This document shows, piece by piece, positions 4,966-56,871 of a DNA stretch of 64,000 bases. This stretch comes from Bdellovibrionales bacterium. GTDB lineage: Bacteria > Bdellovibrionota > Bdellovibrionia > Bdellovibrionales > UBA1609. A program made the translations under genes and the position numbers. Location: contig JAPPLG010000028.1 of the NCBI GenBank assembly GCA_028819545.1, positions 5,646 through 69,645 on the forward strand. The letters are read 5' to 3'. Numbering within the stretch: the first letter of the stretch is position 1; each line of letters opens with the position of its first letter. Below the pieces are notes generated by a model, which was given only the letters and a program-made list of their open reading frames with translations, had not been told where the DNA came from and did no database searches.

Positions 4966-5038
<73 letters not shown>

Positions 5039-5238
5039 TATTGAAAAATCAAGAAGCTGAAAAGCTATTTGATTTTTCATCGGAAAAGGAATCGAAATGA
5101 GAGAGCGACTTGTGTTGAACGCGAGAGTGTTTAATACAAGGCAGAAAATCTGGATGATTTTCTGAGAGAGCGAAGTGAGCCTACGCAGGAAATGAACAGG
5201 ATGTGAATGACCATAGTAGGCGATTCCGTCCCGAGCCA
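5039..5238 (+). mobile_element. miniature tRNA-associated element, copy 1: terminator-like hairpin, ~130-nt conserved structured module, exact 18-nt repeat of the tRNA-Phe 3' end
   Basis: CGATTCCGTCCCGAGCCA occurs at 5021-5038 (inside the tRNA) and at 5221-5238. Hairpin at 5043-5078. Module 5093-5220 aligns without gaps to 55072-55199, with compensatory stem substitutions. Confidence 0.55.
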
Positions 5239-5275: not shown

Positions 5276-5306
5276 CTGTCATTCCGGACTTGATCCGGAA
5301 TCCAGC
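5276..5306. repeat. palindromic repeat module A (ATTCCGGA-CTTGA-TCCGGAAT core)
   Basis: CTGTCATTCCGGACTTGATCCGGAATCCAGC. Near-identical copies at 16713-16749, 16630-16666 (degenerate) and 30558-30587 (degenerate). Confidence 0.8.
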
Positions 5307-5312
5307 ACATGA

Positions 5313-5380
5313 AAATACTTTGTATAAGCGACTCAAGTCTCAGACACACAACTTGCTTGAGCCACTTATACAAAGTATTT
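5313..5380. repeat. hairpin (MITE-like) repeat, D family, short variant D1
   Basis: 16-bp terminal inverted repeats AAATACTTTGTATAAG / CTTATACAAAGTATTT with inner CTCAAG/CTTGAG. It is the reverse-oriented, internally deleted relative of 30598-30714. Confidence 0.75.
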
Positions 5381-9900: not shown

Positions 9901-12056
9901 AGGAAAAACGTCTGGAAATTGAAGAGTCTACTGTTTCTTGGTATCTTTTTGAGTATGGAAGCGAGGAGGATGTTCAATTAGAATCGATACAAGACTTTCG
10001 TGATAGGAATGCAGACGCCATAGAAAACTTAGTAAGAGAAAGAATATATATCACTCTTTTTTTGATTGATCAGGGAGTGGATGAAAGTCAAATTACAGAT
10101 GAGATGTTATTGGAAGTGAGTCAAAACAAATCTGATGAATTAGAGCAGTTTAAACAAAGAAAAGATCAGGAAATGCAACACCAATATTATAGCGAGCGGG
10201 TTCAAAGTAAAGTCATGGAAGTTGTAGTTAGAGAAAATTATTTGAATTTACCTTATAACTTGTTTAAATGGGCAGTGAATGAACTGGATCAATATATTGC
10301 TGAAAAAGGAAATAGCAGTGAGTTTCTCTTAAATAAAGAAATATTGTCGGACATTTATGACAGTAATTATCTGAATTTCAAACAAAGTGCTAACCTGTCA
10401 GAAGAAGAAACAGTAGGCTCTCTCAGAGCTTTATTTAATGCTGTAGATTTTAGTGTGCCTGTTTATAATTATTATGACAGACGTCAAATAGAAGAGTGTG
10501 AAAGAAATTTGAATTGTAATGAAGCTGTTTTACGAGCTAGAGCTGTATCGGCGGGTGTTGATCTTTTAAATCTAGTGTCTGGATTTTATAGAGCAGGTGG
10601 AGGCGAGTGGGGAGCGTCCGATCATTGGGAATTTATAGCAGATATTCGTAACTCCTTTAAAGACTTTCTTAATGGAAAAGATCCTCGTACGTACTCCACA
10701 CCTTTTGCCTTTAACTCTAATGATCAAATAATGGAATCCGGGATAGAATATCAAAGAGAAGGAAAGGGTTGGTTTGCCCCCTTAATGGATGGTTTGCCGG
10801 CTCATCCTATGAAGCATGTTGTGTATCAAATGGTGTGTGGAGCTGAATTGAATTCCTATTTCCCTCCAATAGATCAAACATGTACAGACCAGGATGACTT
10901 GAATCAATTAGCAGAAGAATTGCCTTCTATTGATAAAGTATTTAATAAGACCTCTTATATATTGAATATACCAAAAATTATTAGAGGGGAGGCGCCGGCC
11001 GGTATTTGTGATAAAAGCCCTTCTAAAGCTTTTGATACTCCCATTATTATTGGAAATAAAAGATATCAAAATTTGTTGGAGTATGTGTTGGATTTTCAAA
11101 ATATTAGATCCGATATTGATCAACTCTGGGAAGAAAAAGTGGAAAGTCAGTATTCTTTATTAATGGCATGCTTTGAAGATCTTTACGGCAAAATTTACAA
11201 CAATCATTTCTTGAAGCCTATACATTCAAAAGAAGTTTATACTGTAAATACTGCTATGGATAATACTGCGGCTTACTCTTCTTCTTTTGGTGGGGCGCCT
11301 GTTTACCCTGTTGTTTCTCAATCTGTTCCTATCAGTGCTGAAGTTCCAAAAGGAGTTCTGGAGTCTTTAATGAATCAAACAGAATTTTTATTTGATCTAT
11401 TAAAAAGAGTGTACACCTATAATGGTGAGATCTTACCGGAAAGAGTAAAAACTATAGAAAGTGCATGGAATAATCTGGATGGAGCACGAACCGTATTGCC
11501 TCATATATGTAAAGAACAAACAGACTTTACTTCATTACAGGAAAAAGCTTATATGAGTATAGAGTGTTCTGAGAAATTAACTTTAGATTTATTTGAATCT
11601 ATTGCAGAGCAAATTAAAGTTGAACAGTGTGGAAGTTTATTGCAATTTGAAGTTATCGAGATTATGGGAGACAGGTTTACATATATTCAAGAGCATATGA
11701 GATTTCTTATGATATCAGATTTAGATCCAATGCTTCCTCCTGACTACCCTGATGATAAGGTGTTTGCCAGAGCAGATTGTTTTGTCAATTCAACAAATAA
11801 ATGGTGTGATATGTATTCACTAAGACCTCGTGATACAGCGACACTTTTAATTGCTAAACATCATTTAGGTCAAGTCTTTAGAGATTTAATGGATTTGTAT
11901 ACGAAAGTCACTTTTTTCTCAGGGAATTCAACTCCGGAGGAATGTGATAGTATGCAGAACGAGGCGGAAAGGGTTCCCCTTATTCAAGAGGTTATAGATG
12001 AGTATCCAAAGTTATCCTTAGATGAGATATATTCTAGGGCTGTTTTTAATCAATAA
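6963..12056 (+). CDS. giant (1697 aa) signal-peptide/polytopic protein with an N-terminal J domain and a second degenerate J-like domain
   Basis: Signal-like N-terminus ([26 protein letters not shown]). Canonical J domain [34 protein letters not shown]...RRAYD. Second J-like segment [20 protein letters not shown]...LREQWDRDG has no HPD. About 7 hydrophobic helices lie between roughly residues 430 and 800. The ~900-aa C-terminal part has no motif I recognise. Confidence 0.85.
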   Translation: [1697 protein letters not shown]

Positions 12057-16588: not shown

Positions 16589-16749
16589 AAGCCTTCGCTC
16601 AGCAGTTTCGGCTGGCGCCTGCACTGCTTCGTCGTTATATTCCGGATTTGATCCCGAATCCAGTCGTGCTTGAAAGCCTTCGCTCAGCAGTTTCGGTTGG
16701 CACCTGCACTGCTTCGTCGTTATTCCGGACTTGATCCGGAATCCAGTCG
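16589..16749. repeat. two tandem ~85-bp mosaic repeat units (hairpin module B + palindrome module A)
   Basis: AAGCCTTCGCTCAGCAGTTTCGG(C/T)TGGC(G/A)CCTGCACTGCTTCGTCGTTA..TTCCGGA.TTGATCC.GAATCCAGTCG starts at 16589 and again at 16674. The units differ by a 2-nt indel and a few substitutions. Confidence 0.85.
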
Positions 16750-30714: not shown

Positions 30715-30878
30715 CTGACCTCTCTTGTTTCTTAGTGTAGACGCCAGTCTATATACTCGAAGTTCTCTTATTTTCATATGAGAGTGGGCTCGTATTTTGA
30801 AAATTGTTTCTTACAAAAATGAGTCCTGTGGACTGATTTTTGTATGACATAAGAGAGAAAAGAGGACTTTGTGTAAAG

Positions 30879-54729: not shown

Positions 54730-54840
54730 AAATCCTTAAAAATGTAAACAATATGAGGGTTTTATGTCAATAACACTATTGTCTTATATTGATTTCGGTA
54801 TCTATAGAGGATAACTTAACTAATTGTGTTGTTTCAAAAT

Positions 54841-54927
54841 GGAGAGGTGGCAGAGCGGTTGATTGCACTGGTCTTGAAAACCAGCAGACCTTCGCGGGTC
54901 TCGTGAGTTCGAATCTCACCCTCTCCG
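54841..54927 (+). tRNA. tRNA-Ser (UGA), long variable arm
   Basis: Acceptor GGAGAGG/CCTCTCC, anticodon arm CTGGT-CTTGAAA-ACCAG, extra arm, T arm GTGAG-TTCGAAT-CTCAC. Confidence 0.92.
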
Positions 54928-55221
54928 TTTTGTGCAAAGGTTGCGAAGATATAAAAATAGTCCTATGGACTATTTTTATAAAAAACAACTTTCACAAATC
55001 AATAAAAGATGATTCTTCAAGCTAAGAGGGTCTGAATTGTTTTAGGTTGGCACCTAAAACAATTCAGGATTCGAAGTGAGCGAACGACTTATGACAAAAG
55101 CGAAAGTTTTTGTCATAAGGGATCAAAACAGGATGTTTTGATTAGTGAGTGAAGGGAGCCTACGCAAGGAATGAGCAGGAAGCGAGTGACTGTAGTGGGC
55201 GAATCTCACCCTCTCCGTTTT
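54928..55221 (+). mobile_element. miniature tRNA-associated element, copy 2: two perfect hairpins, ~130-nt conserved structured module, exact 22-nt repeat of the tRNA-Ser(UGA) 3' end and flank
   Basis: CGAATCTCACCCTCTCCGTTTT occurs at 54910-54931 and 55200-55221. Hairpins at 54951-54979 (13 bp) and 55034-55065 (14 bp, loop TGGC). Module 55072-55199 is homologous to 5093-5220. Confidence 0.55.
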
Positions 55222-55256: not shown

Positions 55257-55366
55257 ATTTTGTATCAGTGTCTCAAGCGAATTCAGATTTGATCACAGAG
55301 CAGACTGTATAAGTTTGCTCTGTGGCAAAACGCATGTCTGAGCCTTGAGGCATATTAATACAAAAT
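55257..55366. repeat. hairpin (MITE-like) repeat, D family, copy D3
   Basis: Terminal inverted repeats ATTTTGTAT.../...ATACAAAAT, inner CTCAAG/CTTGAG, internal stem CACAGAGCA/TGCTCTGTG. The core CTCTGTGGCAAAACGCATGTCTGAGCC is shared with D2. Confidence 0.75.
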
Positions 55367-55435: not shown

Positions 55436-56404
55436 TTATTTCTGAATGGAGCGTTTTTTCCATAAATCTTCTAATTGGTAATACTGTCTGAGATAGTCGT
55501 AAAAAATATGAATGATTAAAAAATTGTAATCCAATACAATCCATTGAGATAGAGTTTCTCCTTCAATGTATTGTGGGGAGATTCCATACATTTTATGGAT
55601 ATAGTTTTGTACGGATAGGCATAGTGATCGTACATGGCGGGTGTTTAAACCTGATGTCACTAAGATGGATTCATAAATTGTTTCTTTAAATTGAAATAAT
55701 TGGGGGTTTAAAGCGCCTTTCTCGGCTAAAAAAGTGGTGATGTCATTAAATACCTGATTTTGAGAAGATGTATCTTTCAAATATTTATAATGCTTTTGGA
55801 TCAATGGGGTGGTTTTAGGATGTAACATTTCTGAAACAGGTAAATCCAACTTAAGTTTATTTCTAACTTGAGTGGAAGAAATATTTTGAAACCTTATGGG
55901 TTCAATTAAATTTAGTGTTTTCCCTGTATTTAATTCTCCTTTATTTTTGTCCAATTTTTTTAGATATTTTTGAAAGATGACAGGCCAGTTTTTTTTCTTT
56001 TTAAAATCTGTATGAGAGAAAATAATTAAGTTTACTTTATGGAGAATTTGCTCGAAATTTTTCCAGGAGTGAAGTTGAAAAAACAGCTCTTCTCCAAGAA
56101 TAAGATAGACTTCTTCTTTTTCCAAAGAGAGTTGATTAAGAGTGTCTATAGTGTAGCTGGTATCTCGTCTCTTTATTTCAAGGTCTAATACTTTAACTTT
56201 AGGGATGTCTTTAAAGGATTCTGTAATTATTTCCAAACGCTCTTCAGGTTTTATTTGAGACAGATCTTTACCCGGAGTTTGATAAGATGGAATGATATAA
56301 ATGTCATCTAAATTCATTTCTTGTATGCAAGTTTCAACAACCCATCTATGTCCTTTATGAGGAGGATCAAAACTGCCTCCAAATATTCCTATTTTTCTTC
56401 TCAT
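55436..56404 (-). CDS. nadD: fusion protein: nicotinate-nucleotide adenylyltransferase (NadD) + ribosomal silencing factor RsfS
   Basis: N-terminal IGIFGGSFDPPHKGH ... ISSTQVR (NadD). The C-terminal ~110 aa, LVTSGLNTRHVRSLCLSV...WIVLDYNFLIIHIFYDYLRQYYQLEDLW, matches the RsfS/iojap signature (W.v.D.g.v.vH.f....R.yY.LE.LW). Confidence 0.85.
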   Translation of the reverse strand: MRRKIGIFGGSFDPPHKGHRWVVETCIQEMNLDDIYIIPSYQTPGKDLSQIKPEERLEIITESFKDIPKVKVLDLEIKRRDTSYTIDTLNQLSLEKEEVYLILGEELFFQLHSWKNFEQILHKVNLIIFSHTDFKKKKNWPVIFQKYLKKLDKNKGELNTGKTLNLIEPIRFQNISSTQVRNKLKLDLPVSEMLHPKTTPLIQKHYKYLKDTSSQNQVFNDITTFLAEKGALNPQLFQFKETIYESILVTSGLNTRHVRSLCLSVQNYIHKMYGISPQYIEGETLSQWIVLDYNFLIIHIFYDYLRQYYQLEDLWKKRSIQK

Positions 56405-56871
56405 ATTGTATTTTTCTTTTTTATCTGTAAATCAATTTCCAAGCTTTGGCTTTTGCCAAATACTCCCACTTTATTGGGAGCTTGATTGATACTATTTTTA
56501 AAATAGTTGTTTCCTCGCCCTCCTCGCCCTCCTTTTATAAGGAGATAAGGTGCATCTTCGCCAATTAAAATTTCAAGATTTTTGGTTTTTAGCCATGTAT
56601 GAGGGGGCACCTCAATAATCAGGTTTTTTCCTTTACGCCCTGTCTGGCGTCTGGATTTTCCAGGCCTGCCGTCTTCAGCCTTATAAATTTTATTTTTATT
56701 TAAATGAGATAAAGAACTTTTCTGGTTATTGACTTCTATCCACACATCTCCGCCTCGTCCTCCATCTCCTCCATCTGGTCCTCCTCGAACCTTTCTTCGG
56801 GAAGAAGCGAAACTTAAACACCCTCTACCGCCTTTTCCAGAACTGACTTTTAAGCGGATTTTATGGATCAT
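56401..56871 (-). CDS. obg: stand-alone Obg-fold (GTP1/OBG N-terminal) domain protein; no GTPase domain
   Basis: Gly-rich Obg-fold motifs KGGRGCLSF, RGGPDGGDGGRGGDV, GGRGGRGN. The ORF ends (..LEIDLQIKKKNTI*) where the G domain normally begins, with an ATGA overlap onto nadD. Confidence 0.8.
   Translation of the reverse strand: MIHKIRLKVSSGKGGRGCLSFASSRRKVRGGPDGGDGGRGGDVWIEVNNQKSSLSHLNKNKIYKAEDGRPGKSRRQTGRKGKNLIIEVPPHTWLKTKNLEILIGEDAPYLLIKGGRGGRGNNYFKNSINQAPNKVGVFGKSQSLEIDLQIKKKNTI

Follow-up and report, generated by a model that had tools for sequence, protein, structure and literature searches.

The 22-nt repeat found behind the tRNA-Ser(UGA) gene in the stretch of 64,000 nucleotides analysed here (the window) belongs to what is apparently an undescribed family of tRNA-homing, structured, non-coding elements. 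The explanation that we prefer, with moderate confidence and with movement itself being inferred, is that these are non-autonomous mobile elements that are mobilised in trans and that home to position T55|C56 in the T-loop of tRNA genes. In these terms the 22-nt Ser repeat is the duplication that flanks an insertion, and the tRNA gene stays intact. The anatomy is the same from element to element: a terminator-like hairpin is followed by a module of ~134 nt with five helices, and the module is followed by a copy of the local tRNA from C56 to its 3' end.

The repeated 22-mer, CGAATCTCACCCTCTCCGTTTT, occurs exactly twice on the + strand of the window, at 54910-54931 and at 55200-55221, with a spacing of 290. 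No third match was found in the window at ≤3 mismatches and none of 100 shuffles produced one, so the 3'-end repeat 290 bp downstream described in an earlier note is real. An intact tRNA-Ser(UGA) gene lies on the + strand at 54840-54928 according to ARAGORN and at 54841-54927 according to Rfam (58 bits), and its last 19 nt (C56-G73) form the left repeat. From these placements it follows that the 22-nt repeat, of which copy A is 54910..54931, consists of C56 to G73 plus TTTT. Copy B (55200..55221, + strand) directly abuts a ~134-nt module that is homologous to the one behind tRNA-Phe. Its C56 closes helix P4, its G57-T62 pair with the antisense box to form P1, and the remainder is a single-stranded tail.

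Between the two Ser copies all of the features are on the + strand. The left part holds two hairpins. The first (54950..54980, arms of 14 bp at 54950-54963/54967-54980) has A/T flanks and is terminator-like; it is a member of a family of tRNA-trailer hairpins, with further examples behind the tRNA-Arg(ACG) gene of the window and within the Ser element that a relative, L012, carries. The second (55032..55067, arms of 16 bp at 55032-55047/55052-55067) is conserved in the L012 Ser element, with compensatory changes. Both of the perfect hairpins noted earlier therefore exist, with arms of 14 and 16 bp, not of 13 and 14 bp. The proposal that a hairpin centre is held in common with the repeats at 16.6 kb finds no support: GGTTGGCACC is one shared 10-mer at chance level, and at ≤1 mismatch it has at least two matches in 37 of 100 shuffles. 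The antisense box, GGATTCGAA (55067..55075), complements T54-T62 of the tRNA with one G.U and provides the 5' strand of P1. It leads into the conserved module core (55076..55199), which scores 167 bits with the covariance model and contains the P2 hairpin (55088-55119), the P3 hairpin with its GGAUG loop (55121-55143), the invariant GAGCCTACGCA (55156-55166), the 5' strand of P4 (55158-55163), the P5 hairpin (about 55167-55192) and the 3' strand of P4, GTGGG (55195-55199). Folded as a single sequence, the Ser copy has an energy of -52.3 kcal/mol (z=-4.1).

The same arrangement is present on the + strand behind tRNA-Phe, which is intact at 4966..5038 and contributes copy A (5021-5038). A left hairpin plus T-run (5043..5078) is counted within the insertion because it is missing at the empty site in L024 described below. 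The box, GGAATCGAA (5088-5096), and the module, which ends in ..CATAGTAGG, together occupy 5088..5220 and also score 167 bits; the 18-nt copy B, C56..A73, is at 5221..5238, and from 5239 the sequence is the native tRNA-Phe trailer. The Ser module (55066-55205) and the Phe module (5087-5226) form an ungapped alignment of 140 nt with 73.6% identity (E=1e-19). Both junctions read ..TAGTRGG|C56 and so agree in their placement, as had been claimed for the Ser junction. The insertions are 290 bp (Ser) and 200 bp (Phe) in length; both are non-coding, and no credible ORF was found in elements of 200-290 bp. The remaining three tRNAs of the window were said to lack a duplication, and in fact no downstream copy was detected within 1.5 kb at ≤3 mismatches and no match to the covariance model was found at them. 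The earlier note had overlooked the conserved fold, the antisense box and the native-trailer nature of the hairpin after Phe copy B.

Relatives were located by means of the neighbouring NadD-RsfS gene, and their contigs were retrieved. A first pattern, taken from the two copies in the window (GAGCCTACGCANNNAATGANCAGGA), was too strict and had no match in the genome collection; a relaxed DNA pattern that fits all of the copies identified seven loci in two MAGs named "Bdellovibrionales bacterium", of 1.40 and 1.56 Mb. When a Phe copy that was obtained separately is counted, one genome carries ten copies, so that at least 10 copies are present in a genome of 1.4 Mb. The family as a whole comprises 14 full copies behind 12 tRNA species, in small-genome Bdellovibrionales MAGs and in the window, and the host tRNAs named are Ser-UGA, Asn, Leu-AAG, Arg-UCU, Arg-UCG, Gly-UCC, Gly-GCC, Thr-UGU, Tyr, Gln and Phe. 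Further copies, which the earlier note had left to be sought, are thus present in relatives behind at least 12 tRNA species, each with its own C56-to-3'-end. Every module is on the same strand as its tRNA gene, 35-150 nt downstream, and in each the ..TAGTRGG continues into the local tRNA from C56 to the 3' end, including CCA where this is encoded by the gene. The start of the repeat is constant, at C56 in all loci. Its far end is variable, and the repeat ranges from 18 to 57 nt, mostly 18-21 nt, with 22 for the Ser copy of the window, 25 for Thr, 31 for Gln and 57 for the Ser copy of OZ240230; at 6-7 of 11 loci the far end coincides exactly with the 3' end of the tRNA. One copy, which separates the two genes of a Thr-Tyr tRNA operon, is without the terminator-like hairpin. 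Tails are damaged or missing in the Tyr, Arg-UCU and Asn copies, and the Gly-GCC tail has a smaller lesion, a 1-nt deletion. Paralogous copies are mosaic and 61-84% identical, and orthologous Ser copies are 81-85% identical, from which we conclude that the family is old; the paralog identities give no sign of recent bursts.

Outside of these genomes the family was not encountered. A scan of JGI metagenomes with a pattern that fits all known copies gave no matches. A scan of IMG/VR gave seven, which is about the number estimated for chance, and all of these failed the covariance model (best, 11 bits). No match was obtained with blastn against plasmids and phages. With Rfam 15 at gathering thresholds only the tRNAs of the window pass, and E-value scans of two elements returned weak, unrelated noise (≤18 bits). 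A search of the literature on the invariant 11-mer, on TnpB and retroelements that target tRNA genes and on T-loop insertions uncovered no description of the element. The element belongs with the mobile elements that use tRNA 3' ends, which are a known kind; it is the family itself that is apparently undescribed.

An alignment of 13 copies yielded a consensus structure of 41 pairs in five helices. In this alignment 97.4% of the cells are paired and 28 of the 41 pairs show changes on both sides; none of 500 shuffles reached any of the five measures used, and slid controls were ~40% paired. There are 36 G.U cells vs only 4 A.C cells, and the structure is therefore read on the tRNA-sense strand. 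A folded single strand of DNA would fit the covariation and the tolerance of G.T equally well, and an RNA intermediate has not been shown. P2 is a hairpin of 14 bp, and P3 is a hairpin of 9 bp with an invariant GGAUG loop. P4 pairs GCCUAC with GURGG plus C56 of the downstream copy, this C56 being used in the final pair, and encloses the P5 hairpin. P1 is formed by the 5' box and the downstream copy from G57 onward, and stacks on P4. Conserved, unpaired, purine-rich joints link the helices, and GAGCCUACGCA does not vary. That ..TAGTRGG together with copy B might mimic a T-arm was also considered and rejected, as the register yields no T-stem.

The box is the reverse complement of the T-loop and the 3' strand of the T-stem (nt 54-65) of the local tRNA, and box and tail are the sole inverted pair of the element; this pair is tRNA-specific. 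The uninterrupted match of the box is 8-13 nt in 11 of 13 copies, and in 11 of 13 the cognate tRNA is its best or tied-best partner. The observed box-cognate score is 122, compared with a permutation mean of 97 (p<1e-5). Promoter prediction found no independent promoter for the module and the terminator-like hairpin separates it from the tRNA, so transcription of the module may be weak.

The Gly-UCC element is the clearest sign that the sense copy is made from the target at insertion and that the box is inherited. Its tail matches the local tRNA at 21 of 21 positions; its box matches Gly-GCC at 13 of 13 and its own tRNA at 11 of 13. The module is nearest to that of the Gly-GCC element, with 83% identity overall and 93% in P4-P5. 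The perfect local 21-nt tail, together with a box that fits Gly-GCC, bears out what had been inferred earlier, namely that it is the target, not inheritance, that dictates the duplicated segment. The Gly-GCC and Gly-UCC tRNAs differ at ~6 paired positions. Pasting of a fixed segment that included the left copy would have produced a chimeric Gly tRNA with about six mismatched pairs, and the native copy A of Gly-UCC therefore argues against it. In the three intact Ser orthologs, the tails match at 18/18, 18/18 and 17/18 positions, with modules that are 15-19% divergent and flanks too different to be aligned. Either selection, conversion from the tRNA or re-insertion thus maintains the tail.

Comparison of occupied and empty loci defines what was inserted. 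The Phe locus lies within a conserved BacA-tRNAPhe-EEP synteny. In L024, the closest relative with the Phe region, tRNA-Phe runs directly into CATTTTGATCTTCTTTTAGAAAAAGAAGCAAAA, and in the occupied window and in L023 the CATTTTGATCTTCTTTTAGAAAAAGAAGCAAAA sequence comes after copy B. The empty site therefore identifies the insert as hairpin, box, module and 18 nt, with clean boundaries and an 18-bp duplication, and the hairpin after Phe copy B as the native trailer. The presence/absence polymorphism that had been left to be looked for is thus found at tRNA-Phe with exact boundaries, L024 being empty and the window and L023 occupied. The tRNA-Phe site of L025 is likewise empty, so that the occupancy at Phe is +,+,-,-. 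Identities of the neighbouring proteins suggest that the L024 lineage branches inside the occupied lineages, in which case precise loss of the element would be the simplest origin of the empty site; slippage during replication, from one repeat to the other, could be another. The Ser element is intact in the window, in L002/L005 and in L003, is decayed in L012, where P4 and the tail are gone, and is absent from L013 and L015. Behind tRNA-Asn there is a copy without a tail in OZ240230, there are 5' stubs in L012 and L013, and nothing is present in the window or in L003. In L003 and L009 a second, partial module with a decayed tail is located downstream of a full copy, as expected if new copies re-enter at 55|56 and push the older ones outward. 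Occupied, empty, nested and decayed sites together display the turnover that is typical of selfish DNA. A likely example of genome dynamics is that the Ser/Asn pair of tRNAs has been inverted between copies of opposite orientation.

If the element is mobilised in trans, there should be an enzyme, and none was located in the flanks, so that mobilisation in trans remains an assumption. Pfam identified only housekeeping genes among the flanking ORFs and no recombinase, RT or TnpB in any flank examined. Neither tnpB, tnpA, cas12 nor a tns gene was present in about 300 kb of flanks (whole genomes were not covered), and no integrase and no Y1/HUH gene was found in the flanks examined. Two candidate nucleases were considered. 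A gene of the EEP family (Exo_endo_phos), located 350 nt past the Phe element, was rejected as the endonuclease partner: it is a single-copy, vertically inherited, syntenic gene of the clade that is there with or without the element. A Hjc-like PD-(D/E)xK/DUF8196 gene beside the Gln element (L011) was also rejected; it belongs to an unrelated multi-copy family with >2500 homologs, whose paralogs lie away from tRNAs and modules. Group I and group II introns and retrons were rejected by inspection, there being no adjacent RT and the tRNA being complete without splicing, and the module is one that we take to be too small for a known intron core.

We propose the following scheme for insertion. The element would act in a single-stranded form, which is most likely read-through RNA started at the tRNA promoter, and would find the T-arm of a tRNA gene by base pairing, with the box pairing to the sense strand and the tail to the template strand. 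Two breaks would then be made in the target by an enzyme encoded elsewhere, one at 55|56 and the other at the 3' end of the tRNA or a few nt past it, after which the element would be joined to the target or copied into it. The fixed right junction would be accounted for if copying were target-primed from the annealed tail. Filling of the gap would duplicate the segment from 56 to the end, leaving the tRNA intact and giving the new copy a tail that matches its new host tRNA. We favour target-primed copying because one junction is fixed and the other is variable, and because an RNA tail could anneal to the template strand. A point against the scheme is that in 6-7 of 11 loci the repeat stops exactly where the tRNA does, which resembles a defined length or the outcome of selection more than a second break at random. 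Group II introns are, to our knowledge, the only target-primed retroelements known in bacteria. The mechanism would be new for bacteria, and no RT was found in the flanks. Staggered integration of the Cas1/casposase kind would also give long duplications at tRNA 3' ends.

There are parallels to this scheme in eukaryotes. Site-specific R1/R2 non-LTR retrotransposons use read-through target sequence in insertion, and R1/R2 and SINEs share with the present elements a fixed 3' junction, a variable duplication, an RNA 3' tail of downstream target sequence that could anneal to the nicked target, a structured 3' module and non-coding members that are mobilised in trans. The elements described here differ in their bacterial host, in having no poly(A) and no known RT partner, and in showing what is most simply a precise loss. 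The criterion for a SINE-like element, namely a fixed 3' junction, a variable duplication and a tail able to anneal to the target, is met. A more far-reaching proposal, which we advance only tentatively, is that of a protein-less mobile RNA element that chooses its target by pairing to both strands of the T-arm, is copied from its annealed tail by an unidentified enzyme and has its tail rewritten at each jump; such a self-retargeting, SINE-like or bridge-like element is unknown in prokaryotes. A MITE derived from a DDE transposase differs from the present elements, which have no terminal inverted repeats common to all copies and a duplication of 18-57 nt that is not fixed. In eukaryotes, fish among them, the Dada DNA transposons likewise choose specific positions within genes for tRNA or snRNA (PMC8869645). 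Unlike the present elements, they are protein-coding and eukaryotic, and they are not known to have a structured RNA module.

Among the alternatives, the one that survives best, although we judge it unlikely, regards the module as a scaffold and copy B as the 3' guide of an omega-RNA- or crRNA-like RNA that serves a TnpB- or Cas12k-type protein encoded elsewhere. G53-T54-T55 would be the 5' TAM or PAM, and the RNA gene would be spared since GG replaces TT. The ~134-nt scaffold does run directly into at least 18 nt identical to the target, in every copy GTT precedes the target and GG precedes the self copy, and the old Ser orthologs have kept their tails despite the 15-19% divergence of their modules. 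In IS200/IS605 elements the guide simply is the right flank, and a guide of this kind would explain a tail specified by the target. Likenesses to IS200/IS605 elements with their TnpB omega-RNAs, and to PATEs, their non-autonomous derivatives, include subterminal hairpins, a right-end scaffold followed by flank-derived sequence, seamless excision and, in anatomy only, a T-rich motif 5' of the target that is missing at the self copy. However, IS200/IS605 elements make no duplication and carry no flank copy at the left end, and the guide reading leaves the existence of the left repeat unexplained. Moreover, the true tRNA gene 200-290 bp upstream of each element is a perfect GTT-flanked self-target, at which a cleaving effector would be suicidal; the reading requires a non-cleaving protein that directs insertion at the tRNA gene or binds it. 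The first 6-10 nt, the putative seed, are sequestered by the box in P1. Finally, the flanks examined contain no tnpA, tnpB, cas12 or tns, and no Rfam family of the omega-RNA type is matched at gathering thresholds, the E-value scans being weak and unrelated.

A precedent for guides against tRNA genes does exist in the type V-K CASTs, whose 17-nt att guides match diverse tRNA genes beside a GTN PAM, and whose att-crRNA is a truncated repeat ending in ...GAAAG plus a 17-nt spacer that is inverted relative to the protospacer (bioRxiv 10.1101/2021.02.06.429022). The present elements resemble these in holding a short (~17-18 nt) copy of a tRNA-gene segment beside a GTN motif and in using many tRNAs. 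V-K CASTs differ in that they are 20 kb in length, with cas12k, tnsB, tnsC and tniQ, insert 60-66 bp downstream with a short duplication and are essentially confined to cyanobacteria. Near the element we found no ...GAAAG repeat and no cas12k/tnsBC/tniQ set, and the repeats are direct, whereas the V-K att guides are inverted to their targets.

It is also conceivable, but in our estimation improbable, that the same element moved as folded single-stranded DNA in the manner of IS200/IS605 PATEs, REP/RAYT or an integron/CTX-like folded att site. The element would then extend from C56 of copy A to ..TRGG, a linker would restore the tRNA, and copy B would be the displaced original end, with no true duplication. 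In keeping with this, hairpins lie close to both ends, at distances of ~20 nt on the left and ~9 nt on the right, structure is confined to one strand, and the apparently seamless loss at L024 fits peel-and-paste excision. P4 pairs the last bases of the element with sequence 5' of the terminal hairpin, which resembles the pairing of guide and cleavage site in IS608. A jump to a new tRNA would, however, create a chimeric and probably dead tRNA, yet copy A of Gly-UCC is perfectly native. Repeats of up to 57 nt that include native trailer are not expected, and the Y1/HUH gene that might be looked for is missing from the flanks examined.

We are more doubtful that the module is a small RNA with a host function, co-transcribed with the tRNA, in which the box pairs with the T-arm and the tail mimics the 3' end, and which might act, for example, in processing or quality control, as a regulator, or by luring away nucleases directed at tRNA. 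Strong conservation of the fold and of the unpaired, purine-rich joints would fit such a role, as would the ancient nature of the copies, with Ser orthologs retained in three lineages, and the retention of at least 10 copies in a 1.4-Mb genome; and the copy within the Thr-Tyr operon must be transcribed. Opposed to this are the patchy occupancy (+,+,-,- at Phe; three intact, one decayed and two absent at Ser; degenerate copies or stubs at Asn), the nested partial copies, the damaged or missing tails at Tyr, Arg-UCU and Asn with the 1-nt deletion at Gly-GCC, and the terminator-like hairpin upstream of the module. Repeats that reach into the trailer would be unexplained.

The last alternative is that tyrosine-integrase islands once resided in these tRNA genes and left behind independent att relics or CIME-like remnants. 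It starts from the fact that elements integrating into tRNA genes, whose sublocation classes were reportedly set out by Williams in 2002, classically leave direct repeats of a tRNA 3' end that begin in the T-loop. It is very improbable and largely refuted by the homologous arms at 12 different tRNAs, the junction that is identical to the base in all copies, the conserved fold with a box that tracks the tRNA, and the absence of an integrase gene from the flanks examined. The likeness to tRNA islands and CIMEs of the T-loop class of tyrosine integrases is nevertheless close, in that T-loop-to-3'-end direct repeats, an intact tRNA and the possibility of precise loss are common to both. Unlike these, the present elements are only 200-290 bp, have no integrase, and combine a fold supported by covariation with an antisense box and a tail that is re-specified for each target. 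Whereas a lineage of islands uses one or a few tRNAs, here one homologous module is found at no fewer than 12 tRNA species.

Our preferred explanation, a family of non-autonomous elements homing to T55|C56, bears on how mobile DNA selects its sites. tRNA genes are classic landing sites, and in the known cases the site is read by a protein or is matched by a guide that a large CRISPR-transposon carries and has had to acquire. Here a non-coding element of ~200 bp contains, within a conserved fold, both the complement of its target and an identical copy of it, and the identical copy is renewed at each insertion. If pairing determines the target, this would be a very compact and naturally reprogrammable module for site selection. 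Since insertion takes place beside essential genes without harm, the enzyme would be worth finding. On the most modest reading, the family provides a new structured RNA or DNA motif that is strongly supported by covariation, and a means of following genome dynamics in a poorly known clade of small-genome Bdellovibrionales.

The tRNA-Ser/tRNA-Asn pair is inverted in orientation among lineages, as seen when a related Bdellovibrionales contig, L002 (11021-11714), is compared with two others, L012 (11557-12113) and L013 (11019-11294). In L002, modules, the conserved five-helix parts of the element, lie in opposite orientation on both sides of the pair. The Ser element of L012 looks chimeric, with a box (the segment antisense to the tRNA) of the Ser type and a P3 hairpin of the Asn/Phe type. 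Together, this element and the opposed modules of L002 fit an inversion of the pair by recombination between its two flanking modules. The left part of the same L012 element has a near-identical counterpart on the minus strand of the window, downstream of tRNA-Arg-ACG, where the trailer (~30750-30877) contains a hairpin and AAGAAACAATTTTCAAAA. This trailer sequence is also related to window 54950-54995, and it is not followed by a module.

Several copies are irregular. The tail of the Arg-UCU element, its copy of the tRNA 3' end, is broken at L007 706-745 by a 33-nt hairpin insertion (CTTCAAAGACAC..GTGTCTTTGAAG), and ~95 nt beyond this insertion another element is represented by a 25-nt 5' stub (L007 800-825). 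The Phe element of OZ240230 carries an internal duplication or insertion of ~30 nt (L023 5600-5645) 5' of its 3' end (..CTGTAGAGTCAATTGGGGGCCAAAACACAACTGTAGTAGG), and in the Asn element of this genome the expected tail position is occupied by ATTCCTGCCTTCGCAGGAAT. The latter is a variant of ATTCCGGACTTGATCCGGAAT, a small palindromic unit that recurs in intergenic DNA (window 5283-5305, 16639-16659 and 16722-16742; L002 ~11703-11722). On the minus strand of L011, a perfect 20-nt direct repeat, GTTTGTTGAATGAGTTGGTG (1560-1579 and 1888-1907), encloses box, module, tail and a further 113 nt and is interleaved with the 31-nt tRNA-Gln repeat, an arrangement for which we have no explanation.

A gene of ~200 aa encodes an Hjc-like PD-(D/E)xK domain and DUF8196 (L011 786-1439, minus strand; L026 5001-5621; L027 5001-5600). 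It has more than 2500 homologs, with several copies each in many other genomes; one 1.56-Mb genome holds four paralogs that share 79-83% identity with the L011 copy. By appearance this is a small nuclease gene of the selfish or defence type that has no connection with the module. On the minus strand of the window (55436-56871), an ORF that holds no more of Obg than its N-terminal domain (156 aa) overlaps the beginning of the gene for a 322-aa NadD-RsfS fusion, an arrangement kept clade-wide.

The tRNA trailers also contain a second repeat family, to which the D-type hairpin repeats belong (window 5313-5380 and 55257-55366; L023 5725-5790; within L009 4450-4615 and L024 5625-5790). 5' of the D-type repeat, L009 and L024, the latter with an empty tRNA-Phe site, share a stretch of ~100 nt composed of a CTTCTTTTAGAAAAAGAAG hairpin and CTTAGATTCTCTTCGTYATAG. 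Its 3' end (..TTGTAGTAGG in L009, ..TCTAGTAGG in L024) resembles in both cases the 3' end motif of the module, and the stretch may be a decayed remnant of an earlier generation of the tRNA-homing element.
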